The notes under the pieces are model-generated. The model did no database searches. It was not told where the DNA came from and saw only the letters and a program-made list of their open reading frames with translations. A stretch of DNA of 64,000 nucleotides from NCBI RefSeq assembly GCF_964355755.1, contig NC_092672.1, positions 13,826,001 to 13,890,000 on the forward strand. Direction: 5' to 3'. Below, in pieces: positions 4,768 to 63,855 of the stretch. The translations under genes and the position numbers were made by a program. Numbering within the stretch: position 1 is the first letter of the stretch; every line of letters begins with the position of its first letter. The stretch comes from Antedon mediterranea (Eukaryota; Animalia; Echinodermata).

Positions 4768-4886
4768 TTTAGCATTGCTTGTACAGTATCAGTAGAAATA
4801 ATATTATGTATTGTATATGTATACTCTGAATAAACTGGGGAAGCTTAACTTATTTGTGTTGTGTGTAAATGAAGGTATAATTAGCT

Positions 4887-5359
4887 ATTTTGACACATGT
4901 GAGCCCGATAAACAAAAACAAGGAAACAAGTATTGGTTGTAAAGTTATTTAATATGAATGGCAAGTCATCGTTGCAGCATGCACGTAAAAGGAAATCATA
5001 AAAAAGGAACATTGGGATGCTCTGAAAGGGCCAAAACACATGTCTCAAAATCGTAATTGAAAACAAAATAAAAAGGGAGTGGAGGGAGGGAAGTGAAAAT
5101 TATTTTACTTAGCCAAAAACTGGCGTGGTAATCTGTTGACAGCGTGAGGTGAAGAGGATGAGATGCTCACGCTGTCAAAAGATGATTGCGAGGGCGCCCC
5201 GCAATCACGTGATTTTGACACATGTGAGCCCGATAAACAAAAACAAGGAAACAAGTATTGGTTGTAAAGTTATTTAATATGAATGGCAAGTCATCGTTGC
5301 AGCATGCACGTAAAAGGAAAACATAAAAAAGGAACATTGGGATGCTCTGAAAGGGCCAA
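4887..5359 (-). repeat. Split direct repeats (B1-A2-B2 layout) at the 3' end of the Ngaro-like element
   Basis: 148-bp direct repeats at 4887-5034 and 5212-5359 flank a 177-bp unique segment. The same layout occurs at 63382-63529 and 63707-63854 in copy 2. Confidence 0.85.
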
Positions 5360-5437
5360 CACAGTTGGCAACGAAGAGGCCAACGAAGCAGCCCAAATTA
5401 AGTGCAGGTAGAACCGATGACAAGCCATTCAGATGAT

Positions 5438-5880
5438 GGTGCAACATATATTGACACCCAGAACGTATAGAAACTATCTACATAGTCTACCTGGAGCAAC
5501 ATGTGTTGACTCCAGTACCCGGTTGACCATTAGCGCCTGATAGGTGGAGCAACCAAATATTGACATCGAAAAACGTATAGAAACACCTACATTAGTCTAC
5601 CTGGAGCAACATGTGTTGACTCCAGTACATGTTTAAGCATTTTAATTAGGTAGGCAGTGCAACCAAATGTTGGCACCGAAAAACGTATAGAAACAATCTA
5701 CATTAGTCTGCCTGGGGCAACATGTGTTGACTCCAGTACGCGTTTGAGAATTGAGTTTAATAAACGGTGCAACCATGTTGACACCGAAAACATATAAATA
5801 ACTTATTAGTCTACCTGGAGCAACGTGTTGACTCCGATTAAACATATGATTATAATTGGCGGTGCAACCTATGCTGTCAC
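5438..5880. repeat. Four degenerate ~110-bp hairpin-rich tandem units in the DIRS 3' region
   Basis: Recurring GGTGCAAC..TTGACACC..AACGTATAGAAAC..TAGTCTACCTGGAGCAACATGTGTTGACTCCAG units. Confidence 0.85.
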
Positions 5881-6172
5881 CGAAAGAAAACAAAAATGAA
5901 ATAAGTAAAACGATATACAGAAAAAATAAGTATCAAAGTTTGTTTAAGCTTGACGCTTAATACCCAGTCATGCTTAGGAAATATGCCAACCAGCCAGCAC
6001 CCATATTTACAACGCTGTATTTGACAAAGTTATGTGGTTCGACCATCGTCCAAAAATCAAAATGTCTTGGTGAGAGTGTCAAAGTTGGTGAAGGTCGGTA
6101 GCTCGACCGATTCTGAAAGAATGAGTGTTAAACTGTGTATGTTCCAGACTAGCATGGCGAGCTAATTGTTTA

Positions 6173-6620
6173 TAGCATTAGTGTGTGTTCTGCGGCCTTG
6201 GAGACTACTGCTTCACTGGCTCTGAGGCATGCGAAGTAACATGAACAAGGCTCTGTATAGGATGAATTCGTATTTGGATTTCATGCTACCTCGCATATGT
6301 CCAATTAGCGTTAACAAGAATGTCGGAGGTGACCGGCGGTCTGATCGGTTTGGATGGAGAGTTCGTTTTTTGTTTCGCTACTCCTCTGCATAAATTGCTG
6401 ACTGCTGGATTTGCGGTAAGGTCTTCCATAAATGATACCCTGTGCACGAATGACACTGGGCTAAGGTAGTTTCGAATCGTGGAAATCGCCAGTGCATTTT
6501 TAGTCAGCTTACTTACATAGAGAACAATTGTCTGTGGAGTCGCTGGTAGCGGAAGGCTTAGTAATTTCCTGAATTGGTTAAAATTGTGCCGTTTGCTTTT
6601 ATAGTTACTAGCGGTTCATT
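6173..6620 (-). pseudogene. Truncated tyrosine recombinase ORF of DIRS copy 1
   Basis: Reverse complement of the 27283-27660 ORF (PQTIVLYVSKL...ISTIRNYLS...YFACLRASE) with small indels; the C-terminal catalytic H-x-x-R/Y part was not seen. Confidence 0.8.
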
Positions 6621-6638
6621 TGCTTAATGAGTTCCACA

Positions 6639-7940
6639 TTAGCTCTCGTGTGAGGATCTTGAGTTGTTTAGTGGTTCGAAGTAGATTGGTTGTAAGTGCT
6701 TTGGTATCTTTAGCGGTGTGCGGTTCATACTGTGCTCCTCTAGCATGGCCTCCGTTTCCTGAAAACGAGAAAGAGCGTCACATATCCTGTTTTGCTTACC
6801 AGGGATGTGCCTGGCTGTAAACTGAATGTTGTTTAGTAGTAACAAAAGGACGATAGCGCGAACCACTCTCATGACCTTTTCGTTTGATGACAATTTTGTG
6901 TTAAGCACATATACATCAGCTAGGTTATCACAGTGGAAAACTACATGGGTGTTGGCTAGCTGTTTTGCAAAAATCGAAAGCATGACATAGATGGGGTAAA
7001 TTTCGAGAACCATGATGTCGAACATTTTCCAAGATTCCGGCCAGCGGCCTTGAATCCAGAACTTTTGGAAGGTCGCACCAAGTGCGGTTTTTGAGGCATC
7101 AGAGGAGAAATGTAAACGATGAGAGTCAAATTTTTGTGGGGGTGAAAAATGGTAACGCCATTGTGTTTGCTAAGAAAGTCGGCCCAAATTTGGAGATCCT
7201 CCTTTGCTGAGTCAGAAAGGTGAATAGTTGAAAAGGGGTTAGTTAGACCGGCCGTTAGGGCATTAAGCCTTCTTAGGAACGCCAGTCCAGAGGGTATAAC
7301 CCAGGTGGCAAATTGTAGCTTTTCAAAGAGATTGGGGGGCTCTCAATGTAGTTGAGTGAAGTTTTGAACTTTAAAGGGAGTAACGTAATTTTATTATCTC
7401 AGATGGAAGCCTGTCTTACATTTTCTGTAAATCAAGTTCAATACCCAGGAAGGAAATGGTGGTGGTGGGTGAAATTGTTTTGTGCGGTGCTAGAGGTATG
7501 CCACCGCGGTCAGCAAGCGCCTTGGATATCTTCAAGGAGTTCGCACACAGTTGGTGTGTGTCTTCAATGACGAGGATGTCGTCTAATATTTTCACGTTAT
7601 TGGGCTGTTTTAACTTGTTTATAAGGAAAAATTTTATTCCGTCAGAAAACTTATTGAATATTTGACACGAAGATCCGCCGCCTTGGGGAAGCGTTTTATC
7701 GTAGTAATACTGGCCTAACCACGTGAAACCTGTGAGGTGATATTGAGTGGGATGTAAATGTATTAGTCTGTATGCGTCGCTGGTGTCCGTCTTAGCCATG
7801 AATGCCGGGTGATTGTGTATGTCAATTATGTCTATTGCGTTGGCAATTGTTTCGTAATGAACTGTTATGCAAAACCCAGGGATGTTGTGATTGACAGCGT
7901 TTGAGTCGTAGGGATAGGAGAGGTTGTGGAGGATACGACA
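6639..7940 (-). pseudogene. RT-RNase H ORF of DIRS copy 1, broken by stops and frameshifts
   Basis: ORF track 7416-7799 (RT core) and 6639-7025 (RNase H C-terminal half). Confidence 0.85.
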
Positions 7941-8961
7941 TTTTTCAGGTACGGAATTTCCGGAAGGTTGTTGATGATAGCTTGGGAGTTAGTTGCTGTA
8001 AAAGCAGCCTCATGTAAGGTAGAAGCCATGAGCGAAACATTGGGTTAAGTAAGCGTGGTGTTTGTAACCAGATAGGAGTGCGCTTATTCTAGTGGGAATT
8101 ATTGGGATCCCGAGCACTGAAAAACGAGTGGCGATACTGACAGTTTGTCTGGACACATCTATTGAATCTGTTATGGTAGGAGAAGCCGAGTGGACGCTCC
8201 ACGGTTGGATGGGTTAGAGGTTTATGGTTAGCTCGTTGCGTCTAGTTTATGCAGGAGGTCGGCTCGAACCGATGACCAAGAGCAAAGTGTGTACTCAGTA
8301 GCCATTCAAAATTATCAGTCGTAAAAGTATCATTAATTTGGATGACTGTGCATGAGGTATTTAATATACTTAAAATAATTTAAGATGTCCTGCGTATATT
8401 TACTTAAATAAAATTGTGGCAAAGTCGTGAAAGGCCTAGTGCCAGTTGTGTTCGTTTAAGATGCGGCATTTGGGCTTAGGCACAAGTTCAAAGGTACCAG
8501 TGAACGTTAGCGTCAAAGCTTCCGCTGCACTGTTGAAGTCGAGCAGATTGTGCAGCTCGATGAATTTGTGGGAGATTATTTTCTCTTTAAGTTTTTGACA
8601 AGGTAGGGGGTTTGAGAAAGAGAGCTGCCGGTAGGTTCGGCTTACCGACATTAATCTCAACCACAGAAGTTACCAGGGTTTCGACGATATGCCTCATGTC
8701 CTTTAATTCTTATTTATGTCAAATTCAGGTACTGGTACGGTTCTTTTTTTTTTTTTTTTTTGGTGCCGTATTTTTTACCTCTTGTTAGTTCTTTTCCGTC
8801 CTGACATGGTGTATCTGTAAGAAAATCTTTGTGCAATTAAGACGGAAAGAAAAATGTGTGTGGACAGATATCATCAAGTTGCAGGGGAAAAGGGCCCTGC
8901 AACCATGTTAAAGGAGTGAATAAAAGATTGGAGACAAAAGTCAGCATTGGGGTAGAGAATG

Positions 8962-9976
8962 AAACCAGCATGATTCATTTAATGAAATGCTGTACTTAGA
9001 GGAGGGTGATAAGACACCACCGCCGTATGGGGTGATAGTAGGGGGACCAGCATGAGTCATATAACCAGCATGAGTCATATAATGAATGCTGTACTTAAGA
9101 GCATGAGTGATAAAACACCGCCGTATGTGGGGGTAGTTAATGAACCAGCATAAGTAATTATGTGGTGGTAGTAGGGAAACCAGCATGAGTCATATAATGA
9201 ATGCTGTACTTAAGAGCATGAGTGATAAAAACACCGCCGTATGTGGGGGTGGGTAATGAACCAGCATAAGAAATTATGTGGTGGTAGTAGGGTTAATGAA
9301 CCAGCATAAGTAATTATGTGGTGGTAATAGGGGAACCAGCATGAGTCATAATATAATGAATGAACCAGCATAAGAAATTATGTGGTGGTAGTAGTCATTG
9401 GTGAACCAGCATAAGAAATTATGTGGTGGTAGTAGGGTTAATGAACCAGCATAAGTAATTATGTGGTGGTAGTAGGGAAACCAGCATGAGTCATATAATG
9501 AATGCTGTACTTAAGAGCATGAGTGATAAAAACACCGCCGTATGTGGGGGTGGGTAATGAACCAGCATAAGAAATTATGTGGTGGTAGTAGGGTTAATGA
9601 ACCAGCATAAGAAATTATGTGGTGGTAGTAGGGAAACCAGCATGAGTCATAATATAATGAATGAACCAGCATAAGAAATTATGTGGTGGTAGTAGTCATA
9701 TAATGGTGAACCAGCATAAGAAATTATGTGGTGGTAGTAGGGTTAATGAACCAGCATAAGTAATTATGTGGTGGTAGTAGGGAAACCAGCATGAGTCATA
9801 TAATGAATGCTGTACTTAAGAGCATGAGTGATAAAAACACCGCCGTATGTGGGGGTGGGTAATGAACCAGCATAAGAAATTATGTGGTGGTAGTAGGGTT
9901 AATGAACCAGCATAAGAAATTATGTGGTGGTAGTAGGGAAACCAGCATGAGTCATATAATGAATGCTGTACTTAAG
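8962..9976. repeat. Complex modular minisatellite (AACCAGCATAAG.AATTATGTGGTGGTAGTAGGG / AACCAGCATGAGTCATATAATGAATG modules)
   Basis: Directly visible higher-order repeats. The outer palindrome breakpoint (9728) lies inside it, and a partial mirror copy is at ~60036-60284. Confidence 0.92.
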
Positions 9977-11173
9977 GGCAAAATCAAATGTACATCTGAC
10001 CAATTACTCAACTCCCTGACGCACAGCTACTCCACAGTAGTTCAATATAATAGTTTTCCCATCCTGTGAAATGGCGTAGCCCAGTTTGATCTTTTAACCC
10101 TGTACTGTGTTTTGAATGGGCATCGGACGAACAGGAGATTCTTCTGTTATAATTTCTTTGATAATAACACAACAGCGGCAAGTACAATAAAGCTTCAGAC
10201 TGCTTTAATTGTTACTAAGAAACAAAAGCGCACACAGGTGTACGCCCGCGTCGTAGTACTGTTACGTTTGTTCCGTCACCACCCAAGATATTATAGCCGT
10301 TTAGATGTAGACTTTTGATTAATTGCGGTTACAGTTTGAATTTACTTATACTATCATCAACTGTATAAACACATTTTCCGAAAAATAACATTTAAAAATA
10401 AAAGAGACTGTGTTTAGGATTACTAAAAAGATAAACAAAAGTCTACAACACTGGGTAGGCGGGAACAAGACCCGATCTTGCGGTGTTCGGACGAGAACCA
10501 GTGTATTCAACGTGGTATGGTTGTAGACATTATGTTACTTCAAGATTATATATTAAAATCCGTTTAAAGGAGAGCTACCTGCATGATCTTAAAGAAAGGT
10601 TATTTAGATAGAAAAAGGAGCTAAGTCTAATTTCAGTAGAGAATAGGCGTGACTTCTTAAACAAGACATTCATTGCCAATATAATAATTTCTCCACGATC
10701 TAATTTTATGAGTGATTATGTTTTTTTTTATTAATAACATACACCTAGATATACTTACCTTTCATTATGGTAGAGCCCGTACTGATGCTTTCAAATACTC
10801 AGGGATAGCACTGTTTCCTAAAATGTTTTCAGAAGTTGGTGTTACGATCAGAAAAAATCAACGTTCACCGATAGCAAAATATCGAATTTAATAACTTCTT
10901 TTTGTCAAAAGTTTTCAGCGATAACTTTACTAATGGTATATTCTGACGTCATGGATATACTTATGCAAAATTGTGTTGTTCATGTTTGTTTGCAGGTGTT
11001 ACATATTCATAATGATGTTTTTTATAATGATGATGATGCTGATGATAATAATGATGTTATTGATAGTAATGATGATGATATGATGCTGTTGATAATAATG
11101 CTTTTTTTTTATTTTTAAAAATGTTTCTTACAGGATCTACTCAACATTCAATGACTACACGGCTAACTGCTAC

Positions 11174-12217
11174 GGGTGTCACGAAACCTAAGACCACGAA
11201 AGCTAAGACCCCCTAAGACCTAAGATCACGAAAGCTAAGACCCAAGACCTAAGATTACAAATTCTAAGATATACTACAGCTTAAAAACAATACTTGTTTA
11301 TCCATCCATAATTTTAAACACAGTAGGTTTCATTTATTACCATAAATATAATTTAATACTACCGCAAAACACAGATAAACTCACATTATTTTCGCCCGTT
11401 GAGTAAATGTATATTTTTTCTTTACAACAAACAAACTTGACGGGTTGTTTGTTGGTATATATTTACTCCAATGTGTTGGTTCAGAGGATGTTTTTCTTAC
11501 GCACCTGCCTTTCTTGTATTTTGACTCCAAATTTGTTTACTAACTTTATCCTGAATACCACACTTTAAAATTAGGACTTATAAGTACTTTCAGAAGGAGA
11601 AACACATAATAACAAATAAATAAATCCTTTAAATTGATGATTTTACAGACGTGTTTCTTTGTATACTGTAATGTAACTCCTCGAGCTCCCCATGCTCAAT
11701 GTTTTTGTTTCTATGGAGCGCCAAAAAAGCAACAATAATAGTACAAGTATAAAAACAGAAAGAAAATGAAACAAAAAAACTTATCATGATTTTTAAGTTA
11801 AAATTTATTTGCCAGTATTTATTTCTTCGTACTTGCATGATTATACTATTATCATTACAATTTTGATTTTACATTGTTCCATCCACACTGTAGATGGACT
11901 CCACAGAGTTTTCAGCCCTCTATATAATTTTTGCTCTTTTGACGTTCAATAGAAACAAAAACATTGAACATGGGGTAGGCCTACCAGTGTACTGTAGGCT
12001 AGTCATTTTGTGTGCGAGAAAAACGTCTGTAAAATCATCAATTTAAAAATGTATTTGTTACTTTTTATGTGATTCTTTTTCATGAAAGTGCCAATTCTAA
12101 GGTGTGGTATTCAGAATAAATGTTGGGAGTTAAAATACAAGGCAGGTGCGAAAGATAAATATTTGTAATCTTAGGTCTTGGGTCTTAGCTTTCGTGATCT
12201 TAGGTTTCGTGACACCC
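11174..12217. mobile_element. Non-autonomous MULE/Foldback-like MITE
   Basis: TIRs GGGTGTCACGAAACCTAAGA.../...TCTTAGGTTTCGTGACACCC built of CTAAGA modules. 10-bp TSD TAACTGCTAC at 11164-11173 and 12218-12227. Confidence 0.85.
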
Positions 12218-13366: not shown

Positions 13367-13750
13367 TATTGACTATTTTCACATAAGTCATAATATTTAT
13401 GACATTAATTTAGCAGTCATTAGGTCATAACATTTATGACAATTTAAAGGTACATGTTAAGTCTCGGAATACGCTAGTTATAGTGTATAGTACAGGAAGC
13501 ACTAATTTCGGGGCTTCCTGGTACAGTATTGACTATTTTCACATAAGTCATAATATTTATGACATTAATTTAGCAGTCATTAGGTCATAAAATTTATGAC
13601 AATTTAAAACTACATGTTATGTCTCGGAATACGCTGGTTATAGTACATGAGGCTGTGATTTCCGGGCTTCAAGGTATTGACTATTTTCACATAAGTCATA
13701 ATATTTATGACATGATTGTGAAGCTGCCATTAGGTCATAAAATTTATGAC
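13367..13750. repeat. Three ~150-160-bp tandem units, each with two GTCATAA-n3-TTATGAC palindromes (mirror ~56262-56645)
   Basis: Units start at 13367, 13526 and 13675. Confidence 0.9.
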
Positions 13751-14333: not shown

Positions 14334-17300
14334 TCACCCCGGAAATGTGTAGTCGTCCTCCTCATTTGCCATCTCCGCATTATCTTCAACCTCCTCATCT
14401 GTACTGTCGTCCTCATCTGAAATGATGAATAAACCAAGGCCCTATTATTTAATAGACCTCTAAATAGTTGTATAATTTTTTTAGAAGCTCTGTGTAAACA
14501 AAATTTTAAAATAGAGAATCTTTTTTTTTAAATTTGTATTACTATATGTTTCAAATTGGGTCAGAAATTGATTATAGGTATTTTGAATATTGATTAAAAA
14601 TTAAATGCATGGGCTGTGTTTATACAAGTTTACAATACAGATAGCATAGTATGCCGTCCAAGTTATGAGAATACAGCTTAATATGCCGTTTTAAAATTCC
14701 TGAACAAAAAGTAGCAGTATATTGCACTACAAACATCAAATCATCAGCATTGTATTGCGACTTGAATGTATACAATATCGCTTGTATATTGTTCTTCGTA
14801 TTAGCATCCATGACAATAGATAAACAATAAAGTTAATTTAACTTAAACTTACCATCCGATTGGGCTCCATTTTCAAGCTGAATGCTGTTTTCAATTTCTT
14901 CTTTGAAACGAACTAATCTGGATCTTAATTCAGATTCCCCATCATTCTCGAGCAAGGTTATACAATTGCGCCGTTGCAAAATTATTTCCTTGAGCACTGT
15001 AATTATAATAACAATAAAATAGATTTCAATTGAATATTAAATTATTTTGTTAGTTCATTAATGTCGTTTGTACAAACGACAATAGTAATGACTCAAAGAA
15101 CAAGAATTTTTCCCATTTGATTGAATTTTAGCGACATGCCCAATTGTCACGCGGTATGTTTTTGGTTAACATCAATGAATGATTATTATGAGTTATGGTA
15201 TAAATGTATTATTTACCATTCCATCCTAGGCAATTTACAACTAAGTGACCTTCTCTGCTATGCCTTGTCACTAGTTGCTTAATTAGCAGTTCTAGTGACT
15301 TAGCCTTAATGACGCCACCAATTCCATTCATCATGCGTTCGTGTTGAGGGCTTACTAATAACGTGCGAATGGTGTCTAAAAAAAATATGAATCATCATTA
15401 AACTGTAGGCCTACATACTTACATTAACTTTCCTGTATATTTGAATATAATAATAATAATATCAATGGTACATTTCTTTTTTTTTTTCTTTTATTAGAAA
15501 CAAGAAGAAATAACCCCATTACCTCACCATCCACCTCATACCAAAAAGCAGTTAGTATTGCAAATTGGTGAACATTTTTTAGTAGACTGCCAATCAATGA
15601 ATGACCTATATTTATAATTGAATAAAAATGACTGAACTATATTTGTAAATACAATAACAAACTGGGTATACCTTGTTCTTCGCAGTACCAATACTGTACT
15701 TGCATGACTCTATCATTGTCTTTTAAAATAGTCATATTGTATAGCAGGTCCTCGTCATTGCAAACAACTACGATGACATCAGAAATCAGCATTTCTTTTT
15801 CACATTTCTACAAAAAAAAAGCATAGAAAAAATAATATAATAAGAATAACAACAGTAACAAAACCAGTAACAAAACCAGTGCAGTCTCAATGTTACTGTG
15901 TTATGCAAAAATTGCATGTGTCAGGCTTCGGGGGGTCAGTTAGAATGGGTAGAATTATAAAATAATATATATAATCTCTAAAAACAGTTTGAATATTTGT
16001 TCTGTTGTTTATATAAATCTATTAAAATCTTTCTTAGTAAAGCCACATTGATAGGCCGTAAAAAAACAATTTAGTTTCAAATTTGAAAACCCCTCACTAT
16101 AGAATGAATTACAAATATACAAAACAATATAAAATATTTAAAATATATCAAACCTCTGTCAGTACGAGCAGGCCACGATGTAACCCCATATTACTGGAAT
16201 TGGCAATATCTGTCAATTTTCTGCCAATAAACGGCCCAGACATAACTTGACACTTTGATCTTGTTCCATCTTCTGTTAAAATATCAACTGTTGACGCTTG
16301 AGGCTGACTTTGCCTTTGTTCCTCCCAAAACAGAGCATCTTGACAATGCATGAATAAACCTGGTGGAATTTCGCTTTTAGATAACTTCCCTTTCAAAAGA
16401 AATGTATTAAAATGTTTTTATTATTATTTATTCAATATTTTAATTTCTATAAGGGATAGTAGTTTTGTGTGAATAAAGTACCTTTGCATCGAACTGCATA
16501 ATATTAAATTGTTTCAATTTTGTACGAATTTTTAAAATCTGACAGAGTGGGACTTGGTTTTAGAAATATAGCACAAATACAGCGACTGAATTCTATTAGT
16601 AACATAGTAACCTTACTTGTTGTTAAAAAAGGCCGAAGAGCAGAATCGGTCGTGTGCTCCGGAAATCTTTCGGTCGCTTCCTTCCATGTCAGTACTTTAA
16701 TAGTTGTCAAAAATTTTCCTCTGATCACCTTTATCTGCTTAATCGACCGTGCTTTATTTTCAACCTCTTTAATGGACATTGTTCCGTCTGTTACAGATGA
16801 CAGCAATTCAAACTTGTCTTCTTCCGACAGGCCTTGTAGTGTCATGAAGAACTATAGAATTGTAAAAAAATGTTTAGTCACAATACTGATAACAAATAAT
16901 AAAGCGTTCCAATAAGGGTTCAAGAGGTTCAGTATAAACATTTCTCTCGTGTGGATAACAATTGAAGAATTTACAAAACAATTGTTAATGCACGTCATAT
17001 CATTTTTGAATAGGCCATTTTTTAGTTTTAACAAAGTTAATCACACTCCCCCCCCCCCCCCCCTTTAGAAAAAACAGGCCTATTTTAAAATGTTTTTTTT
17101 TGTAATAAATTAGGCCTAATTTTAATAAATTTTTATAGTTTGTTATGTTTAGATTTAACCTGTTAGTGGCGGTTTCATCGCTGTTGGTTGACAACTGTAT
17201 AAAATAAATAAATTAATAAATAATAGATTGTTTTTTACAAAGTTATTAACCCTTTGAATGAAGACGCGTTGTTTCTACCGCAAGTGACTGAGACTAATAA

Positions 17301-20300
17301 TTAACTGATTGTGTTTCTTGCTTGTTTGTTTTTGCCAAAAAAAAAGCATACACCAGTAATTGCTATTTATTGAGAGAATAAATGTGACAGAAAATAAATG
17401 TAAGAAACCTACCGACTGCTTCAATTGCTTTCCGGGTTTGGAATCCTTTACCGTTCCTGCATTATACTGGGCAAACAGCTTGGTAACCTTTGTGTAGCAT
17501 CGGTCCGTATACAATGATACTTGGAACATCGGTTCCATGGACGATATTATCTGCAATACAACGTTATTATTTATTATTACTATCCTTATTTATTATTATC
17601 GTTATTATCTTTTTATTATTGTTAATATCCTTATTTATTATATATTATTATTAATTACAACATTATTATTAATTATATCACCATTACATTATTAATTACA
17701 ACTTTATATATTAGAGTCCTAAATAACTTGTTTAAATAATATTAATAATACCTTTTTTTCGAACGATTGTTTGCCAATTGCCTCTGCACACTTTCTCCTC
17801 CATGTCGAAGTCGTTTTGGCATCTTTGTCATTGTAATCTTGCAAAATGTTACGGCATACTGCAACGTTGTCTTCAAAAGTTGCTTGGTGAGTATTACCTG
17901 TGACGAAATTATGTCGAGATGCCACAAGTAGTGATTCAGTTTTTGTTAGATCAAAATAGACTGCCACTTCTAATTGTTTAAATATATTCTCACTCATTGT
18001 TGATAGTGCTGTTCTTAAATGATTTCCGCCAAGTGAATAAAAAATACACTTCTCGTATTCTTGTTTGTTAAAGAAATCGTAATGTTCTTTATTAAGCAAT
18101 ACAGGTAGTATCGTGTTCACCAGACCGTCCTTTGTAAGCGTTTCTTGAATTTTTTTAACAAAATCTTGGTCGATCTTGCGAAGTAGTAAGTCCGATGGCG
18201 GCGCTACTATCGAACTTCTTGGCACAGCAACTAGACCTATAAACGTAAAATGACAGTTTGTTAAATATTACATCTTATGATTATACAACAAGGAAGTATT
18301 CTCCCCAGGATTTAGATCAAGCATCGTAGTAATCTTATGTCCTGGCTAATCTGGGTGTCGGTGACTAATATTGTCAGCCTACTACTACAATTTAGTGAAA
18401 TCATTTACCTGTATTTCACAATTCTAATATGAAACAACTTAATATAAATATGTCATTGTATTATTATTATGATAGGATTTTCATATTTAAAAACCAATTT
18501 TATTTTTTACTAAAATGGGGAATTCCACAGTAATTGCAAGTTGCGACATCAGTAAAAAACATTTTAAAAAATTGTTTTACATACAAAGTTGGACATTTTC
18601 AGAAAAAGGATACATTATTAAATTATATGAATTACAAAAAATGATTGACATTATATTTTAATATTAGTTTTATTTTTTAAATAACAATATATATCCTAAA
18701 AATTTAACGTTGCCATACAGTATAGGCCGTTTAGTCTAGGCCTAGGTAGTGTCAGGACATCATCACCCCCTGCCTGCTTGAGTGCATGGAGATCACCCTG
18801 CACATGTTATTTTTTTATATTTTAGTTAATTTTGAATTTATATAGGTATTTTGCACAATATCTAGGAAGGTTAGGCCTAGTGTATGTTAGCATCCGGGCT
18901 AGGTCTGGGTTTGCAAGGCTAGTAGTAGTCATGTGAAAGAAAATTGTCCAATCGAATGACCGGAATCTATTTATGCGTTTTATAATAACTGTTTGAAACT
19001 TAAATAACAATAAAACAAATAGAAAATAGAGTAACTATAAGAAGTTAAAACCTGTGTTCAAAATATCTTTAGTTCGTTCATCTTCGAAAAATGTGTTCAT
19101 CCGCTTTATATTTTAATAGGCCTAGTACGTATAATTACTTATCTAGCCAGATTATACTAATTTAACGTAACGAATTGTAGATACATTAAATCTAATCATG
19201 GTTAGGCCTATAGTTATTGTGAGTTATGTTTAAAATTACAGTTTTTGTTATCCAAGATCAAAGTGAATAACTATTATGTGACATATTCAACAAAACATTT
19301 GAAAAAATATAAAACAGTAACGTTTGTTTAATTGTAAACTACAGTAAAACAAAAGCAGATAATAATTATGCTTGTCCATGGGGCATGGTACAGTATGTAA
19401 CTTCAATAACAAATGTTTCATATACTAACCAATGATCTTTTCTTTGATTGTTTCGTCGATTGTCTTTATGTTAATTCTTGTTCTCTTTGTAGTTACGTTT
19501 TCAGCATCTTGAGCTTTTCGCTTTCGTAATGTTTGCAATGTTTTGGTAAGGTCGTCAATTGTCTTGCATTTGCAAAATGGGCAATTTTCGTCCGGTTTGA
19601 ATTTGCTCCACAATACTTTGGTTGCAGCAAGCGTACTACTACAGTCGCTTTCTTCTGTAACAATCTATAGTATTGCAAAATTGTTTTTAATTAAATAAAT
19701 AACTAAACATAGAAATTTATATAGTTGTTAAGTCTACACACTACACCCTAATATTCAGTGTTGGTGCTCTTGATGAAAATGCATTTTTTAAATCATATAT
19801 AAAACTTTAATGTTAAAAAAATGGTCAACAAAATTAGTATCAATGGTCCTATAGTAAAGATATATTACAATTTAGTTTTAGGCCTGAAACAACATTTCAA
19901 TTAATTAGATGAAATAAATAATCGAATAAATCATAATATATATTATAATCAGAAAGCCTATAAAATCCAAATATAATAGGCCTATTAAACAGCTGAAGAT
20001 TGTGCCCCTGGGAAAATACTAATAAAACTAATAATTGCGTGGCTTGAAACACTTTTTAAAACTGCAAAATGGAAAATAAAACATCTTTATAAAGTAATAA
20101 GACTGGTGAAGAATGGTTCCCTAAAAACATTAAAAGAAAATTATATTATTTAGAAGAACACAACAATCTTACCTTAAGCCAGTTTTTGCCTTTAGTTGTT
20201 TTGGTAAATTTTATAACCTTGCCTAACTGTTCACCATCAGAATGCTTTATTGCCCTAGTGTTATTAATTATTAGATAAGCAATGTTGTCTTCCTCTACAC

Positions 20301-20316
20301 AAAACCTCCAGTCCAT
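14334..20316 (-). CDS. 11-exon, ~690-aa protein with a ParB/Srx-like domain, a degenerate beta-class N6/N4 DNA methyltransferase-like domain and an acidic tail (left-arm copy)
   Basis: Reverse complement of the 49699-55678 model; one amino-acid difference seen (AQYNAG vs AQYYAG). Confidence 0.75.
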
Positions 20317-22766: not shown

Positions 22767-24938
22767 TAAATGATATGCACATTTAATAATACAATTTTGT
22801 TTTTGCATCCACATGATATTATTATATAATGAATTTTTCAATTGTGTAGCCAAGTCACACCTGTGGTACATTGGGTTAACTTTCACAATTCTTATTTGTT
22901 TTTTTTTCTTTTTTTCCATAATAGTGTAAGGTTATAGTAGGTCACCCCATGAATAAAGGTGCAATAGTATGATATATAACATTGTTTTATCAAAGTGCCG
23001 TTAAAATGAATAATTATAAAATATTATTATAATATATAAAAGTAAAGCCACATTAAATCGTATTTAATTAGGATAATATATGGATGCACCTTCCATTTGG
23101 TCGAGTGCCACTGTTGTAAAAGTGTAATCTCCAAATAAATTATTATTATTATTATTATTATTATGGGCAACACTAGCCCTATATCAGTGGAAGTGCTTTT
23201 ACAAAATTGAGAATATGAATATTTTACATCCATTTCAAAAGCTTCATTATTATTGCGATCTTTTAGACATTATGTGAGTTAAAAAACAGAAAATTAAAAA
23301 AACATTTAAATATAAATCCACTAGTCCTTTATAAGTGAAAGAATAAAATTGAGAATATGAAGCAAACAAGCACTGCCTGAGTGAACTGGAATAAAGAAAT
23401 AAAAACAAAGGATCAAGGCACAAGCTGAAAACAATGAAGATAGCTTGGTAGATATAAACAATTAGGAATGTATCTAAAAAAAAACAACTCAAATGGTGGT
23501 TAATATTGAACCTTAAACTTAGGTAGTCGATGGAATAATTTTACCGATCTGGGAGTATGTTAATGTTAAGATCAAACAGTTTTGTGGCTTTAAGTAGTAA
23601 TTCCAAGTTTTTTTTGTCTTTTGACAACCTAATATGTTCGTGTCATTGATATAAGATATTACACGAATGCGACATGTCTTTTGAATGCAATACATTGAAC
23701 GTTCTTTGCGGTTTCTGCAAGTATCAGTATTATTCATTTAGGCCTATATCATTCAGATTAGATATAATATTCAGAACCGGCGCAACGTTTTTGAAATTTA
23801 GTGGTAATTTAAGGTTGTGTATATTTGGAAGTCCAAACCCACGTCAGCTCGACTATGATTGGGACTAATGTTTAGAGCATTTTTAGGAATTCGGAGTTCT
23901 GTGCTGTTTCTGCGATTATCCCTTTATATCACATTAGATCAAAAAAAAAACCCAATGATATGTTATTGATATAAGGGTTTATCTCTGTCACGGAAATTAG
24001 GCATTAATAACGTCAAGGACATTACAATTTTGTCGCAATAATTGCCAACCCCAAAAACAACTATCACTCAAATCATGCTTGAAAAGGCACAACTTTATAC
24101 ACCCTTTATACTATAAAGTACTACTAATACTATAAAAAATGTACTACAATGATAGTTTTCAGTAATTACTTCTTATATGCATCATGCACACTAATTAATC
24201 AGTTTTGTCTTCTACATATAAATTTTGATAATGAAATTGTTTGCAACATCAATATAAACACTTCCAAAAGTGGCATACAGGGTCGGAGCCCCATGCCATT
24301 AGCTACCCATGATCATCATGTAGGCGTAGTGCCGTTAAAATGAATTATTATAAAATATTATTATTAAGCAAAGGTATAAATGTGTAATTTTATGAAAGCA
24401 TTTTGTGTCTCACAGTGTAGATATATCGCTTAATTATGGATTATTTAACCCTTTTAACCCTGGTGTGTTTATTTCTTTCTAATTAAAAGTCTAACCTGAA
24501 TTTTAAATCAATGAATAAAGAGTAACAGTGACCGTACCATGCATATAGGCTCAATAGAATTATAAATTTCAAAGAGTTTTGTTAAATTCGTTTATAATAT
24601 ATCAAAGTATAGCCACATTAAATCTTTAAAACAAGTTAAATCTAAACTTTAAATTCTATCTTCAAACAATTTCCTGTATGATCAAATCATCTTTTATGTA
24701 TATAATTTTCAGAAATGAATACTGTACCTTGTAATAATAATATAATAATATTTATTTTGAGCAACACATATTTAACAGTGGCACACATACAACATTTAAG
24801 CATATCAAAATATGTTTATACCTCCATGATTTAAGCAACACAATTACTTTAAAAAAAAAATATACAAAAACAATAGAAAATAAAAACTGAAACTACCTGT
24901 ACAACTTGTCATATTTAATTAATAGGATACCAGTAACC

Positions 24939-27900
24939 CATACAGACTAATACATTTACATCCCACTCAATATCACCTCACAGGTTTCACGTGGTTAGGC
25001 CAGTATTACTACGATAAAACGCTTCCCCAAGGCGGCGGATCTTCGTGTCAAATATTCAATAAGTTTTCTGACGGAGTAAAATTTTTCCTTATAAAAAAGT
25101 TAAAACAGCCCAATAACGTGAAAATATTAGACGACATCCTCGTCATTGAAGACACACACCAACTGTGTGCGAACTCCTTGAAGATATCCAAGGCGCTTGC
25201 TGACCGCGGTGGCATACCTCTAGCACCGCACAAAACAATTTCACCCACCACCACCATTTCCTTCCTGGGTATTGAACTTGACTTACAGAAAATGTAAGAC
25301 AGGCTTCCATCTGAGATAATAAAATTACGTTACTCCCTTTAAAGTTCAAAACTTCACTCAACTAAATTGAGAGCCCCCCAATCTCTTTGAAAAGCTACAA
25401 TTTGCCACCTGGGTTATACCCTCTGGACTGGCGTTCCTAAGAAGGCTTAATGCCCTAACGGCCGGTCTAACTAACCCCTTTTCAACTATTCACCTTTCTG
25501 ACTCAGCAAAGGAAGATCTCCAAATTTGGGCCGACTTTCTTAGCAAACACAATGGCGTTACTATTTTTCACCCCCACAAAAATTTGACTCGCAGCGTTTA
25601 CATTTCTCCTCTGATGCCTCAAAAACCGCACTTGGTGCGACCTTCCAAAAGTTCTGGATTCAAGGCCGCTGGCCGGAATCTTGGAAAATGTTCGACATCA
25701 TAGTTCTCGAAATTTACCCCATCTATGTCATGCTTTCGATTTTTGCAAAACAGCTAGCCAACACCCATGTAGTTTTCCACTGTGATAACCTAGCTGATGT
25801 ATATGTGCTTAACAAAAAAATTGTCATCAAACGAAAAGGTCATGAGAGTGGTTCGCGCTATCGTCCTTTTGTTACTACTAAACAACATTCAGTTTACAGC
25901 CAGGCACATCCCTGGTAAGCAAAACAGGATATGTGACGCTCTTTCTCGTTTTCAGGAAACGGAGGCCATGCTAGAGGAGCACAGTATGAACCGCACACCG
26001 CTAAAGATACCAAAGCACTTACAACCAATCTACTTCGAACCACTAAACAACTCAAGATCCTCACACGAGAGCTAATGTGGAACTCATTAAAATGGACCTG
26101 AAATGGATTTTCGATTTTTTTCATTTTAGAATGATGTTTTGGGGGCTATTAGGTGTTGCTAGAATGTATATTGTTACAAAATATAAATTGGCCCTTTTGG
26201 GGAAAGCCCCATTTGAAAATCAAAAAAATTCGCGGGTGACGTCACTTTGCGAATATATTCCTATCCCTCCAATGGACAATTTGCAGTTTTTTGGCTATAA
26301 TTCTTGAAATCTATGGATTATTTTCTAAAAAATGCTTGTGTATTTGCAGAAACGTATTTAGAATTTTTTTAGATAAAATTATTACCGTATAAACGGTTAT
26401 TCATCGAGTAAATGACGATTTAAAATCTTAAAATCAACGGTTTTTTTTCTGGCAATACCGAAGTTGGCCTGGCAACGTTGTCCGGGATACAGCTCCGTGC
26501 GCAATGATGCGTATCCATATTTTCCGTTCGTGTATTTTGTATCATTCGTAATTTATACTGCTAAAATATGTTAGTTTCTTTAGTTTTTAGTTTAGCAGAA
26601 TTAAATTAGTAATAACTAATATGAGATGATTATTTATTTGTCACGAATCAGGCAGTTCGAAAACGAATTTTATTCATATTTTACTTTGGCTTGACAATGA
26701 GCGCAGCAAGTTGTTGATATCGCTTTGGTCCTTGGATGCACATGAAACGGAGCCTCGCCGCATGATGTGGGTGGTGGATCGACTCCGCTCACTGGATTGG
26801 GGGCCTAGGCCTAGTAAAGGTTTGGGAGGTAGGCCTTCTAAATTCGGGTTTTAGAACAAACGAAGTACATTTTAGGGACCTATATTTCAACAACATTAGA
26901 TATTGAATAAATTAGTATTAGTGTTAACGCTTCGCGTATCTTTCCAGGCCGTCGATCATTCACTGACTATCGGGCGGCATACACGCTCTCTCGATATCAT
27001 TGTGTGTATATGTGACGTCGTGAATATAGAGGCTTCCGACGGCCGTTGAAATAGAATATTGCAATGGCGTGAGTAATTTTCGCTAATTTACCATGGTATC
27101 TTAAAATTTCGTTTACTCAAAATACTATACATTTTGTTTTTATTTGTATGGGTTTGTGTTAATTTGATACATTTAAATAACATGTGTGAATTTCTTGAAA
27201 ATCGAAATTCCATTTCAGGTCCATTTTAAGCAAATGGCACCATTTTAACCAATTCAGGAAATCACTAAGCCTTCCGCTACCAGTGACTCCACAGACAATT
27301 GTTCTCTATGTAAGTAAGCTGACTAAAAATGCACTGGCGATTTCCACGATTCGAAACTACCTTAGCCCAGTGTCATTCGTGCACAGGGTATCATTTCTGG
27401 AAGACCTTACCGCAAATCCAGCAGTCGGCAATTTATGCAGAGGAGTAGCGAAACAAAAAACAAACTCTCCATCCAAACCAATCAGACCGCCGGTCACCTC
27501 CGACATTCTTGTAACGCTAATTGGACATATGCGAGGTAGCATGAAATCCAAATACGAATTCATTCTATACAGAGCCTTGTTCATAATATGTTACTTCGCA
27601 TGCCTCAGAGCCAGTGAAGCAGTAGTCTCCAAGGCCGCAGAACACACACTAATGCTATAAACAATTAGCTCGCCATGCTAGTCTGGAACATACACAGTTT
27701 AACACTCATTCTTTCAGAATTGGTCGAGCTACCGACCTTCACCAACTTTGACACTCTCACCAAGACATTTTGATTTTTGGACGATGGTCGAACCACATAA
27801 CTTTGTCAAATACAGCGTTGTAAATATGGGTGCTGGCTGGTTGGCATATTTCCTAAGCATGACTGGGTATTAAGCGTCAAGCTTAAACAAACTTTGATAC

Positions 27901-28111
27901 TTATTTTTTCTGTATAACGTTTTACTTATTTCATTTTTGTTTTCTTTCGGTGACAGCATAGGTTGCACCGCCAATTATAATCATATGTTCAATCGGAGTC
28001 AACACGTTGCTCCAGGTAGACTAATAAGTTATTTATATGTTTTCGGTGTCAACATGGTTGCACCGTTTATTAAACTCAATTCTCAAACGCGTACTGGAGT
28101 CAACACATGTT
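24939..28111 (+). mobile_element. DIRS/Ngaro copy 2, 5'-truncated left part (RT-RNase H-YR remnants)
   Basis: Highly similar to the reverse complement of 5719-7774. It is interrupted by a TTAA MITE and ends at the CATGTT TSD. Confidence 0.9.
26091..27225. mobile_element. Non-autonomous TTAA-specific DNA transposon (Kolobok-like)
   Basis: TIRs AATGGACCTGAAATGGA.TTTCGATTTT. TTAA TSD at 26087-26090 and 27226-27229. The empty site is present in DIRS copy 1 (~6624). Termini are RR..YY rather than the CC..GG of piggyBac. Confidence 0.85.
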
Positions 28112-28149
28112 AGTAGTAAATAAGGTACTTCAGACCCGACCTTGATGTA

Positions 28150-28450
28150 TTTCCTGATTACGTAATATCCGCCAGGTGTTTCTAATGAAGGTCGTTTCCG
28201 CCAGGTGTTTCTAATGAAGGTCGTTCTTTTCCTGATTACGTATAGTTATGTAATTTCCGCCAGGTGTTTCTAATGAAGGTCGTTTTTTTCCTGTTATTGT
28301 AATAGTTATGTAATTTCCGCCAGGTGTTTCTAATGAAGGTCGTTCTTTTCCTGGTTTCGTACTAGTTATGTAATTTCCGCCAGGTGTTTCTAATGAAGGT
28401 CGTTCTTTTCCTGGTTTCGTAATAATTATGTAATTTCCGCCAGGTGTTTC
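28150..28450. repeat. ~60-bp sub-terminal tandem repeats in the TIR (also at ~41592-41892 and ~62678-62978)
   Basis: Six occurrences of the core TCCGCCAGGTGTTTCT, five of them continuing AATGAAGGTCGTT. Confidence 0.92.
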
Positions 28451-28470
28451 TTTGTCTCTTATTTATTAAT

Positions 28471-28520
28471 TTTTGGCGCGATGTTCTGGTACGTGGTGAG
28501 TGACGTCATTACGTTATTTA
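28471..28520 (+). promoter_or_regulatory. Putative promoter of the TIR ORF with an E2F-like site and a CRE/ATF site
   Basis: TTTTGGCGCG (28471-28480) and TGACGTCA (28501-28508) lie ~115-150 bp upstream of the ATG at 28622. Confidence 0.45.
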
Positions 28521-28621
28521 TGATTTAAGACGGTGTAACAAAGTGAAGCGGTTATTGTTGTACTATTTTCCAGTTGTTTTTGCATATTTTTGCGTAGAGT
28601 ATCTCTTTTCAGTATTTCATT

Positions 28622-29176
28622 ATGTCTGGAAGTATATATTTTTCGCAAGGGAGTTGTGCAGATAATGTTATAATAATTAGCGATGATGAGGAGACTGTTG
28701 TTGTTCCAGGCAGTGATATAGATGATCGTTACACGGAGGCCGAAGAGGTTATCCCCGCCGGTATAGATGAAGGAGTCGAGAGGAGTAACAGGCCTACAAG
28801 TTGTATATTCACGTACGTGGACGAGGTGGAGAGAGAATTTATGTTGAAAATGGAGCGTTTGGTTAAACAATTGTTTGCTGCTCAAGTGTTAGCCAAGTGT
28901 TGGGTTTTAAGTAAAGCGGCTTGTTATGGTTGTGAATTTGACAGGAGCAGTCAAAAAGATCATGATTTTTGTTGTATGAAGTCTCTAGAGGAACAGATTG
29001 ACTATTTTTATCGGGAGGTTCTGGATAAGAAGTATGTTTCAGTCGATACCGTTTACAACGAACTAAATATGCACGGAGAATATTCATTGCCTCGGTATAG
29101 ACATTTCGTTTATTTTCTTGTCAATACCCTGATTAATTCAGAGGCTATTTTTAAGCTGTTGTGCGAGGATATTTAA
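28622..29176 (+). CDS. Intronless 184-aa protein with an acidic N-terminus, a SIM-like VIIISDDEE motif and a CxxC-x8-H-x2-C putative Zn motif
   Basis: Open ATG-to-stop ORF, identical in three copies; motif CYGCEFDRSSQKDHDFCC. Confidence 0.7.
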   Translation: MSGSIYFSQGSCADNVIIISDDEETVVVPGSDIDDRYTEAEEVIPAGIDEGVERSNRPTSCIFTYVDEVEREFMLKMERLVKQLFAAQVLAKCWVLSKAACYGCEFDRSSQKDHDFCCMKSLEEQIDYFYREVLDKKYVSVDTVYNELNMHGEYSLPRYRHFVYFLVNTLINSEAIFKLLCEDI

Positions 29177-29335
29177 ATTGTGTTTCGCACGTGTCACGGA
29201 AACGATTGACCGGAAATAACAATCATTATCTTTTTAATTACTGTACTGGGCTACTTCTCTACTGAGCTGCATATATATCCTGATTCAAGCGTAATCGTTC
29301 GTTTCACTCTCTGTAACTCTCTACAGTCTATAAAC

Positions 29336-31175
29336 ATGAGTTTCAACTGTTTACCTACTCCGAAATTAGCAATTGGTGAGAAAGCCCGTAGGACTATGAA
29401 AAGAGTTATGGGGAGTTCTAATGGTCAAGCTGACGAGTGTAGCAGTTTAAAATTACCAACGATGGCTTCTACATCAGCGAATATAATGGATTCTATAAAA
29501 TCTTTTAACGGTCAAACAGATGAGTGTAAAGGTTTGAGTAAAGCCTCAGGAATGAGCGCCCGAGATTTTGCCGTAATGACCGATGGTGTACCAAAGATTT
29601 CCATAACTTCAAAGAATCGGATTTTCTTGTCTGAAAAACGCCATGTAGTGGCCCAGCGATGGGGTGACGATGTTTATGTTTGTCTCAGAGAGTATTACTA
29701 AACGGAAGAATATGGTGCCTTCAAACCTGGACCTCTAGGTATTAATTTACCCGTTCTGCTGTGGCAAAAACTTTTCAACAATATTGATTTAATTATTCAG
29801 TCACTGGAAGACTTACAAAGAGACATTAACATGGTGGAGGCAGTAAGAATCCCCCTTTCGGACATAATTCATGTGGTAGTAACTGGAAAGAAGAACAATT
29901 TGTGTGTATTCGTCGCTATTACCAGTCTGAAGAAGGAGGAAAGTTTAAACCCGGTAAAAAAGGTGTAAACCTTCCAAAGAGTCAGTGGTTCAAGTTAATT
30001 GAAAAACACGGTGAAATACAAAAGATGATTGAGGAGGTTGGTAATGATAATGCAGCTACTGTTGAAGGAGGTGTTGACAAAAACGTTAATGGAGGACGTT
30101 TATTCAATTCAGAACATCATTTGCTACCTCCTGATAAGTTATCGGTGCAAAAGATAATAGGGGAAAATTTAGACTGTGATTACCTTCAACTTCTTGATAA
30201 AGGAGCAGCCGATACATTGTTTAAAAAATGTGAGGAAGAGATTGACTATTTTACCGGTGATTTTGCAAAGGTGAAAGTGTATGGAAAGTGGTTTAATATT
30301 CCTAGAAAACAGGTTAGTTCCATTATGTTTTTATCCGTGGTTTTGTATTAATGACTTGTTAATTACTTGTATATCGTTTCCTTTGTTTTTCTTTATTTAC
30401 CGCTGTGTAGCTATAGGTGTAATTTACTCTTTTACTGTAAATTATTTTATTTAGGCGTGTTCATTTACATCTCGCCAAATAATAAATGACTTTCTTTGTA
30501 TGGTTTCCTCTCTGCAGGTTTCGTTTGGCAATTCAGGCTTAACTTACAAATATTCAGGCAATACAGTACCAGCTTTACCGTGGCCACCATTCCTGAAAGA
30601 TCTCCGCGACCTTTTAAAATCGGTTACAGGACATTACTTCAATTTTGTTTTGGTCAACCGGTAAATATTCTTGTTTATTATTTTATTTATTTATTTATTT
30701 ATTTATTTTTATTGATTAAAAGGGTCTATAGTTTACCTCTAAAACGATTGAACATTATCAGTATTCATACTGGATGATTTCTGCAATTTGTTAGATAAGA
30801 TTGTTTTAATGGATAATTGGGGTTTTTTTTAGTCTCATCTTAAAATATCTTATTTTCTATTGTATTTTGTCGTTACTCTATAGATATGCTACTGGAAGTG
30901 ATTACATTGGCGAACACAAAGATGATGAGAAAGACATGGATCACTTTAGTTCAATCGCCTCTGTATCATTGGGGCAAACACGTATGTTTAGATTTCGACA
31001 TGGTGATGCGCGAGGTAAGAGTCCCAAAAGAATCATTGAGCCAGTAACTGTTGATCTTAAACACGGTACATTATTAATGATGAATTATCCCACTAATGAG
31101 TACTGGTACCATTCACTGCCTAAAAATCAATCCATCAAGCTACCAAGAATAAATCTCACGTTTAGAGATATTTAA
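29336..31175 (+). pseudogene. PC4-PC4-ALKBH2-like fusion gene with 3 exons (29336-30312, 30518-30660, 30884-31175), an in-frame TAA at 29699 and a 4-bp frameshift at ~29880
   Basis: Two PC4/Sub1 domains: VCLREYY*TEEYGAFKPGPLGINLPVLLWQKL and VCIRRYYQSEEGGKFKPGKKGVNLPKSQWFKL. ALKBH2-like domain: ENLDCDY..KVKVYGKWFNIPRKQ|VSFGNSGLTYKYSG..FNFVLVNR|YATGSDYIGEHKDDE..WYHSLP..RINLTFR, with HxD..H and Rx5R intact. Confidence 0.88.
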
Positions 31176-34100: not shown

Positions 34101-34540
34101 GGGACGACATCCCTGCTAGTGATGTACGGTAGCCATGCGGTCTACACACTTATGATGACCACATCGCATAACATGTTCAGGGAACTTATTTTTCAACTCT
34201 CTGATACAATGTTTAAATACAAGTAGACTGGAAACCATTTAGGAACAGGGGTTTCTAATAATAGAAGTTGTTTAAAACTTTAGTTATTGTCAAGGGGAAT
34301 TGTTCAAGACTTGGAGTAAAAATAGTCAAGACCGGGGGAAAATGGTCAAGACCGGAAGAAAATTAAATTTCACCATTTTATAAGTTTATAGTCATTTATT
34401 GTGTTAAAATTCATTTATTATTAGACCTGTATACGTATTCAATAACAAAAAATAACTTTGTTACATTAATAACATATCTTTAGTGGTTAAGGTAATATAT
34501 TATTTCTCTGTATACTGACGTCACAAATATAGATAAAGAG

Positions 34541-34836
34541 AGACTGTAACTAAATGTTTATTACTTATTAGGGTTACAGGGAGAGTTCCATACAGCATTA
34601 AAAGGTCAATTAATGAGCCACCCAACTTAATTAAGTACCGGTACTTAACAAATGTGCTCAAACTCAATAAGGGTTACAAATCTACAAGAGACTGTAACTA
34701 AATGTTTATTACTTATTAGGGTTACAGGGAGAGTTCCATGCAACATTAAAAGGTCAATTAATGAGCCACCCAACTTAATTAAGTACCGGTACTTAACAAA
34801 TGTGCTCAAACTCAATAAGGGTTACAAATCTACAAA
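34541..34836. repeat. Two 148-bp direct repeats next to the palindrome centre (mirror ~35205-35500)
   Basis: Units start at 34541 and 34689. Each contains the 18-bp palindrome TTAAGTACCGGTACTTAA (34631-34648 and 34779-34796). Confidence 0.92.
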
Positions 34837-63854: not shown

Positions 63855-63855
63855 G

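Follow-up and report, generated by a model that had tools for sequence, protein, structure and literature searches.

Clamps of the ParB type are textbook bacterial proteins, and to our knowledge eukaryotes have been known for this fold mainly through sulfiredoxin. ParB-methylase accessory genes have been published for brown, red and green algae (PMC12477816; bioRxiv 10.1101/2025.02.11.637652). The 21.5-kb Ectocarpus transposon Sola1-1 (Sola1-1_Ec32) holds an accessory gene with ParB and N4-cytosine/N6-adenine (N4C/N6A) methyltransferase domains, whose product has been proposed to bind its own element (PMC12477816), while in the PAG2/PAG3 cassette of red-algal Plavaka elements, which includes a PF01555 methylase, the ParB-type gene PAG3 adjoins tandem arrays of inverted repeats (bioRxiv 10.1101/2025.02.11.637652). 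Here we analyse a window of 64,000 nucleotides of AT-rich animal DNA from the crinoid Antedon mediterranea (NCBI RefSeq assembly GCF_964355755.1, contig NC_092672.1, positions 13,826,001 to 13,890,000 of the forward strand; coordinates below count from the first letter of the window), in which a spliced gene at 14334-20316 encodes a ParB-like part, a helical middle and a degenerate methyltransferase-like part.

Akin to the algal genes, this gene combines ParB-like and amino-methylase domains, lies beside an array of inverted repeats and occurs in dispersed, near-identical copies, and it is best read as their animal, catalytically dead variant. The comparison is one of domain content and context, not of sequence homology, and the differences are clear: the Sola1-1_Ec32 protein has 1104 amino acids (aa), is a predicted active methylase and is transcribed opposite a transposase, whereas the crinoid protein has 664 aa, lacks a catalytic motif and has no transposase that we could find in the window; in Plavaka, one gene joins ParB to a 2-oxoglutarate (2OG) oxygenase and another joins the methylase to a SET domain, whereas the crinoid gene unites ParB and a dead methylase in one protein. 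We put the probability at about 55% that a large DNA transposon carries this gene as an accessory, with a product that dimerises, binds palindromes of the element and possibly spreads as a clamp, its methylase domain having lost catalysis. The initial annotation had left open whether the gene is transposon-borne or domesticated; because of its dispersal and the algal precedent we favour the former and infer transposon membership, although neither a transposase nor element ends were found. Such a gene would carry over from algae to animals the idea of giant transposons that encode accessory proteins for binding and managing their own DNA. The literature that we searched holds no account of the animal family (subscription papers, Repbase reports and supplements, including the red-algal accessory-gene tables, lay outside that search), and the accessible part of a survey of eukaryotic adenine methylases gives no animal ParB fusion (PMC4738411).

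The gene runs on the minus strand from 20316 to 14334. The 11 exons initially proposed, with a product of ~690 aa, all have GT-AG ends and join into a stop-free frame of 690 aa, with 35-49% GC in exons against 15-29% in introns, and the sequence motifs quoted for the protein are present in the translated frame. Exon 8 (15605-15528) is probably unused, however: among the nine A. mediterranea models of the RefSeq cluster, all six that span the site skip it and join exon 7 to exon 9, and its peptide has no match among 74 fetched proteins. The gene therefore most likely has 10 exons, giving the frame of 664 aa to which residue numbers refer unless a protein id (e.g. P0004) is named. The predicted splicing draws on homology and on RefSeq models, which are usually based on RNA-seq. 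For exon 3 and all that follows, the junctions agree with RefSeq models; an Anneissia japonica homologue matches exon 2 and its boundary with exon 3 (one blastp alignment, aa 48-457, E 7e-138), and exon 1 shows weak homology (best phmmer E 0.035 among the 74 proteins; best reversed control E 0.29). RefSeq P0007 is 100% identical to the window protein over aa 293-589 and P0008 has Y318; the two may be the window copies themselves, i.e. independent gene predictions and not independent DNA. A sequencing run that we had guessed to be RNA (X1) gave contigs that cross introns, with no spliced joint among the matches listed, and thus behaves as DNA and is silent on expression. The parts of the gene are as follows.

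20173-20316, minus strand: exon 1 (aa 1-48), beginning with the start codon at 20316; GT donor, joined in frame, weak homology (E 0.035)
19430-19664, minus strand: exon 2 (aa 49-126), variable N-terminal region that includes a basic stretch like a nuclear localisation signal; phmmer E 3e-20 to Anneissia P0010
17752-18236, minus strand: exon 3 (aa 127-288), predicted ParB N-terminal domain (aa 128-244) followed by the opening helices of the adjoining domain; structure model and conservation
16617-17550, minus strand: exons 4 (17550-17413) and 5 (16851-16617), helices that resemble the DNA-binding domain of ParB/KorB/SopB (~aa 244-378); RefSeq junctions, Foldseek and VIA-align
15672-16389, minus strand: exons 6 (16389-16154) and 7 (15807-15672), last part of the helical region, then the first part of the methyltransferase-like domain; RefSeq junctions and Atlas structure search
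15528-15605, minus strand: exon 8 of the initial annotation, in frame, probably intronic; skipped in RefSeq, no homologue
14853-15375, minus strand: exons 9 (15375-15217) and 10 (14996-14853), putative degenerate S-adenosylmethionine (SAM)-binding half of a beta-class methyltransferase fold (aa 562-610); Atlas structure matches and a weak profile alignment
14334-14416, minus strand: last exon, acidic tail and stop codon; RefSeq models and GT-AG joins
49699-55678, plus strand: copy B of the gene, in the right palindrome arm; one coding change, N318Y

We considered whether the N-terminal CPFCKC could be a zinc or other metal site; the motif is not kept in Anneissia, and we rejected this idea as probably wrong.

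Structure prediction strongly supports the ParB-like core that had been proposed from the sequence. An AlphaFold model of exon 3, built from 54 sequences, reached a mean predicted local distance difference test score (pLDDT) of 92.5. In a Foldseek search of this model against PDB, the ten matches at E<=0.001 were all Noc, KorB or ParB, and all matches listed, down to rank 49, belonged to the ParB/Srx superfamily; the named entries from the viral library were mostly of the ParB type. By VIA-align, aa 128-244 superimposed on Myxococcus ParB with a cytidine triphosphate (CTP) analogue (7bnr) with Z 11.7 and a root-mean-square deviation (rmsd) of 2.1 over 92 aligned residues; KorB followed with Z 10.2 over 127 residues and SerK with Z 8.2, while sulfiredoxin scored at most 7.8. 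The N-terminal domain is thus strongly predicted to have the ParB/Srx fold of the CTPase type and to be closer to true ParB CTPases than to sulfiredoxin. We rejected a sulfiredoxin-like enzyme on the lower Z, the extra domains and the missing cysteine of GGCHR, which we take to be the sulfiredoxin cysteine motif.

The helical middle, whose likeness to a known domain the initial annotation had overlooked, resembles the DNA-binding domain of ParB/KorB. In the model of the homologue P0004, pLDDT is mostly 80-94 across this region, and the top six Foldseek matches are ParB/Spo0J proteins aligned over 193-198 columns, extending into the helices (E 0.007-0.04). Residues 96-230 of P0004 (aa 244-378) gave VIA-align matches to KorB (Z 6.6, rmsd 3.6, 97 aligned, and a second with Z 5.6), ParB (5.2), Spo0J (5.0) and SopB (4.5). 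Five of the best 15 matches belong to these proteins, overall Z being 4.4-6.6, a range common for helical bundles; the assignment, for which we have moderate confidence, draws on the appearance of several members of the expected family at the expected position.

The ParB-type residues are conserved across the 54 aligned sequences: R146 is kept in 51, G196 in 53, G197 in 52, N198 in 48, H199 in 47, A203 in 52, H235 in 46 and N236 in 47. In Caulobacter ParB, residues R60, E102-R104 and N136 are required for CTP binding or hydrolysis (PMC8367383). By sequence analogy, the conserved residues of the family appear to follow the order and rough spacing of the Caulobacter CTP motifs (R60; E102-R103-R104; E135-N136-R139). 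In 44 of the 54, the position after H199, counterpart of R104 by the same analogy, is occupied by L, S or T, and in 39 R stands one position later.

The likeness to the bacterial ParB/Spo0J/Noc/KorB clamps comprises the N-terminal fold (Z up to 11.7), next to it helices that resemble the DNA-binding domain, conserved positions for R, G-x-H and N, and nearby palindromes. In contrast to these clamps, the crinoid protein (11-18% identity) is encoded by a spliced nuclear gene with no ParA in view, has a methylase fold in place of the dimerisation domain, and reads GNHLRTA where bacterial clamps have GxxRxxA, presumably their common motif. The ParB exon (17752-18234) also matched Atlas clusters of DUF3723, with a feature score of 0.94 (174 of 256 features). 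DUF3723 is a conserved cargo of fungal Starships (bioRxiv 10.1101/2021.12.13.472469), i.e. likewise a companion gene of giant transposons, and it may itself be ParB-like. The feature match is a lead only: the DUF3723 Pfam family gave no match at E<=0.05 in 54 family proteins, and no paper linking DUF3723 and ParB was found in the literature searched.

For the C-terminal part the initial annotation had proposed a degenerate bacterial-type methyltransferase, and a structure search agrees. With the Atlas model of P0004 residues 320-485 (aa 468-633), all ten matches listed were PF01555 N6_N4_Mtase clusters (TM 0.70-0.75, 146-157 aligned residues), a comparison with predicted models on both sides and a mean pLDDT of 0.59 for the Atlas model; three of the ten were mainly viral clusters of ParB_N + N6_N4_Mtase fusions. 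A profile of eight beta-class methyltransferases scored seven of seven family C-termini above seven of seven reversed controls (best E 0.0015, 14 sequences searched), and hhalign gave 23.9, where 60 block shuffles reached 21.8 at most (hhalign probability 4.5%). The profile places the region of the KP..L...LI...S..GD.V pattern on aa 562-600. These results point, with moderate confidence, to a permuted Rossmann-type fold of the beta-class N6/N4 methyltransferases at aa 468-633.

The catalytic motif of such enzymes is missing, as had been suspected. When homologues were surveyed for an intact DPPY, [DSN]PP[YFW] was found in none of 74 sequences (73 fetched family proteins and the window model; 17 of them with at least 430 aa). 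LLVLTEKCE at aa 486, placed by eye, is the likely counterpart of motif IV; FxGxG (SAM motif I) is absent from the window protein, which has VVNCLGWN at the aligned place, and a DVGDG motif occurs only in Lytechinus P0070/P0072. Judged from these sequences, the C-terminal domain would be at most a methylase-shaped binding module and falls outside the active beta-class family.

Two further systems resemble this arrangement. Phage ParB_N + N6_N4_Mtase fusions in ParB-terminase loci (PMC4738411) share the domain order and are a plausible ultimate source of the animal gene; the phage genes are intronless with a full PF01555 domain annotated, whereas the animal protein has lost DPPY and FxGxG. The N4CMT gene of bdelloid rotifers is likewise an animal gene with introns and a permuted PF01555 domain of bacterial type, but it encodes an active SPPY enzyme fused to a chromodomain, occurs as an allelic pair and has no ParB; its authors state that it has no eukaryotic homologues (PMC8885841).

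A candidate binding site lies beside the gene. The features concerned, which the initial annotation had missed and which are new here, are:

13367-13750: three tandem units of 150-160 bp, each with two perfect GTCATAA-N3-TTATGAC palindromes; candidate parS-like array
56262-56645: mirror copy of the array; self-comparison and motif scan

The six palindromes (13387, 13424, 13547, 13584, 13695 and 13734) lie 580-950 bp downstream of the stop codon, the two of each unit in different flanks. Twelve occurrences were found against 0.37 expected from shuffles, an excess that is overstated since the pattern was chosen after being seen; an unbiased scan of the 25-kb arm found it to be the sole GC-containing palindrome with 7-bp arms present more than twice. 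Contig depth at the array is similar to that over the gene. We regard the array as a candidate set of parS-like binding sites for the gene product. On this view the protein would dimerise and bind the GTCATAA-N3-TTATGAC sites of the element that carries it. The dimer might then close into a clamp, gated by a nucleotide, and spread over the element, coating it, bringing its ends together for a transposase or shielding it from silencing, and the dead methylase domain would be a second module for binding DNA or protein. With a defined candidate site, the proposal can be tested using one protein and one 17-bp oligonucleotide.

The gene is dispersed in the Antedon genome. Nine uncharacterised RefSeq models match the product at 92-100% identity where they align. 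They are spread over at least four chromosome-size contigs; most of the models are partial and one has a foreign N-terminus. Contig depth over 12.8-21.5 kb is ~2.5-6 times that at 10.1-10.6 kb (three runs, one sample), a ratio that is a hint only, contig depth being no copy number. The second copy within the window had been noted from the outset and is present at 49699-55678, differing by one coding base; what had been overlooked is that the two copies are the arms of one inverted duplication and not independent insertions:

9728-60284: inverted duplication, 50.6 kb, 99.8% identity; self-comparison

Because they stem from one local duplication, the pair says little about the gene. The arms differ by seven substitutions, one 27-bp insertion/deletion and two homopolymer length changes; five of the seven substitutions show an A/T bias, for which we have no explanation. 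The right arm copies, backwards, the left part of a Maverick-like element, half of a DIRS element and the region of the ParB gene, and switches to the true right end of the Maverick-like element at 60284/60288. A fold-back and template-switch event explains this arrangement; an assembly fold-back instead of a real duplication, while a serious contender, is less favoured because of the 27-bp difference between the arms.

The centre of the duplication (34980-35061) forms an imperfect hairpin of 82 bp (z -8.7, 200 shuffles); a 148-bp tandem pair (34539-34834) lies 150 bp away, and the arrangement is reminiscent of the hairpin end of a linear element or of a fold-back junction. The left end of the palindrome falls inside a complex minisatellite of GAACCAGCAT units at 8960-9980. 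One junction (60284/60288) joins minisatellite to an AlkB intron and another (63856-64000) joins a DIRS end to a copy of 23179-23323; both are signs of template switching or misassembly.

Beyond Antedon, a search with exon 3 returned 54 proteins at E<=0.001. Homologues span echinoderms, hemichordates, a cnidarian, a nemertean and bivalves, the members named among 20 proteins looked up being from crinoids, Amphiura, Asterias, Lytechinus, Ptychodera, Saccoglossus, Actinia, Tubulanus, Mytilus and Mercenaria; one Mytilus member carries the UniRef name ParB/Sulfiredoxin domain-containing protein. The similarity covers ~300 residues (aa 110-440), and divergent members occur within species (three in Mercenaria, two in Amphiura). 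An alignment-driven homologue search gave four proteins only, and the family is thus sparsely sampled, most of all in its C-terminal domain. Sequence profiles recognised little of this family: Pfam had no ParB or methylase match at E<=0.05 in the 54 homologues, PHROG gave one weak ParB-like match among 13 proteins (P0013, E 0.006), and a PDB sequence search reached sulfiredoxin at no better than E 0.7-0.8, a longer alignment yielding nothing relevant. No locus was found in viral contigs searched with exon 3 and with a neighbouring 192-aa open reading frame (ORF), or in metagenome contigs searched with P0041 and P0012. In a tree of 21 sequences the two crinoids grouped together, as did the two hemichordates and, weakly, the bivalves, the remainder being unresolved, and neither the three Mercenaria nor the two Amphiura members formed a group. 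The tree fits an old family with several lineages per genome and is neutral between transposon and host gene. A bolder proposal, that marine invertebrates from cnidarians to echinoderms harbour a widespread and unrecognised class of giant transposons with its own ParB-parS system, in which a nucleotide-gated sliding clamp would load at palindromes of the element and spread over it within animal nuclei and a dead methylase would act as reader or recruiter, is tentative and on balance unlikely.

Several points weigh against the reading as a transposon accessory gene with a DNA-binding product. Use of CTP by the crinoid protein is doubtful by analogy, because the canonical ParB arginine is replaced by L, S or T in 44 of the 54 sequences. 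The window copy has L230, where R, conserved in the family, is read in four sequencing runs and in the RefSeq copies that cover this residue, and may be decaying. Another protein might be the one that uses the array, whose six sites amount to a single pair in triplicate. The predicted methylase fold draws on the Atlas model and weak profile scores: our own AlphaFold model is poor there (pLDDT <50, P0004 292-467), and single-sequence global hhalign to the methylase profile gave no match for seven of seven C-termini. Pfam assigned the Antedon proteins to no family at E<=10, and NCBIfam had no relevant match in ten proteins, the Antedon protein included. No transposase-like ORF was found: none of 56 short flanking ORFs had any match in Pfam, a scan that would miss short exons (55 of the 56 were drawn from 120 ORFs of at least 38 aa, of which 65 are GC-richer). 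No convincing terminal inverted repeats or target-site duplication surround the gene, short termini being of a kind that would escape the scan, and only two 11-12-bp inverted pairs bracket it. Finally, the groupings of bivalves and of hemichordates are as expected for vertical descent of a host gene.

The alternative that survives best, though we consider it unlikely, is a domesticated host gene family, in which marine invertebrates kept an old bacterial or phage ParB-methylase fusion as a nuclear DNA-binding or chromatin protein and the extra Antedon copies arose by segmental duplication. The nine or ten introns, a ParB core that is strongly conserved between a cnidarian and deuterostomes, a tree that partly tracks host groups, the failure to find transposase or ends, the local origin of the second window copy and the precedent of a domesticated PF01555 enzyme in an animal, bdelloid N4CMT (PMC8885841), all fit it. 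Near-identical, mostly partial copies on at least four chromosomes do not, nor do the long branches with several divergent members per species or the transposon context of similar algal genes. Somewhat less probable is a decaying relic, i.e. a transposon-derived family whose window copy no longer makes a functional full-length protein and whose array has no present role. It would account for the RefSeq cluster, in which no model has exons 1-3 intact and the two matching the window copies are truncated, for the private L230 and for the lack of an autonomous element in view; against it, the frame of 664 aa is open in both arms with canonical splice sites, and four of seven coding variants in reads are synonymous (too few for a test).

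It is quite improbable that the gene is cargo of the neighbouring Maverick-like element as one DNA-modification module, like the algal cassettes of ParB, oxygenase and methylase. A PC4-PC4-AlkB gene of that element does lie 8-11 kb off in the same arm, copy B stands formally between the two ends of the element, and the algal cassettes pair ParB with a 2OG oxygenase. Copy A, however, lies outside the left end (28112), with a DIRS fragment, split by the element with a 6-bp duplication, in between, and copy B is inside only through the inverted duplication; a single element common to the ParB gene and PC4-AlkB was rejected on the position of copy A. Least probable is that the C-terminal domain, despite its non-canonical motifs, is still active as a methyltransferase and labels the element with 4-methylcytosine (4mC) or 6-methyladenine (6mA): the fold is kept, the likely motif-IV strand of some members ends in an acidic residue and DVGDG survives in Lytechinus, but the [DSN]PP[YFW] motif is missing from all 74 sequences, conservation in the C-terminal region falls far below that of the ParB part, many members lack the region, and changing SPPY to APPA abolishes N4CMT activity (PMC8885841).

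Apart from the ParB gene, the window holds these mobile elements:

28112-31175 (plus strand), with copies at 38867-41930 and 60288-63016 (minus strand): end of a Maverick-like element, with 60-bp tandem repeats, a 192-aa ORF and the PC4-PC4-AlkB gene
4882-8700 (minus strand), and 24925-28111 with 63017-63858 (plus strand): two DIRS-type retroelement copies (reverse transcriptase, RNase H and recombinase-like ORF), ~98% identical, the second split by the Maverick-like insertion and a miniature inverted-repeat transposable element (MITE)
11174-12217 and 26087-27229: two high-copy fold-back MITEs, the second ending in TTAA and holding the 27-bp difference between the arms

The Maverick/Polinton-like insertion starts with AGTAGT at 28112 and ends with ACTACT at 63016, flanked by a 6-bp duplication (CATGTT), which together we take to be the Maverick/Polinton signature. 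It sits in a DIRS copy whose intact twin lies at 4882-7788, and the centre of the palindrome is inside the insertion. Its 192-aa ORF has a CYGC...SQ..H..C motif and no Pfam match, while its PC4-PC4-AlkB gene matches 2OG-FeII_Oxy_2 (E 1e-19). All three copies of this element end share a stop near 29700, and a frame break is common to the two arm copies and absent from the third.

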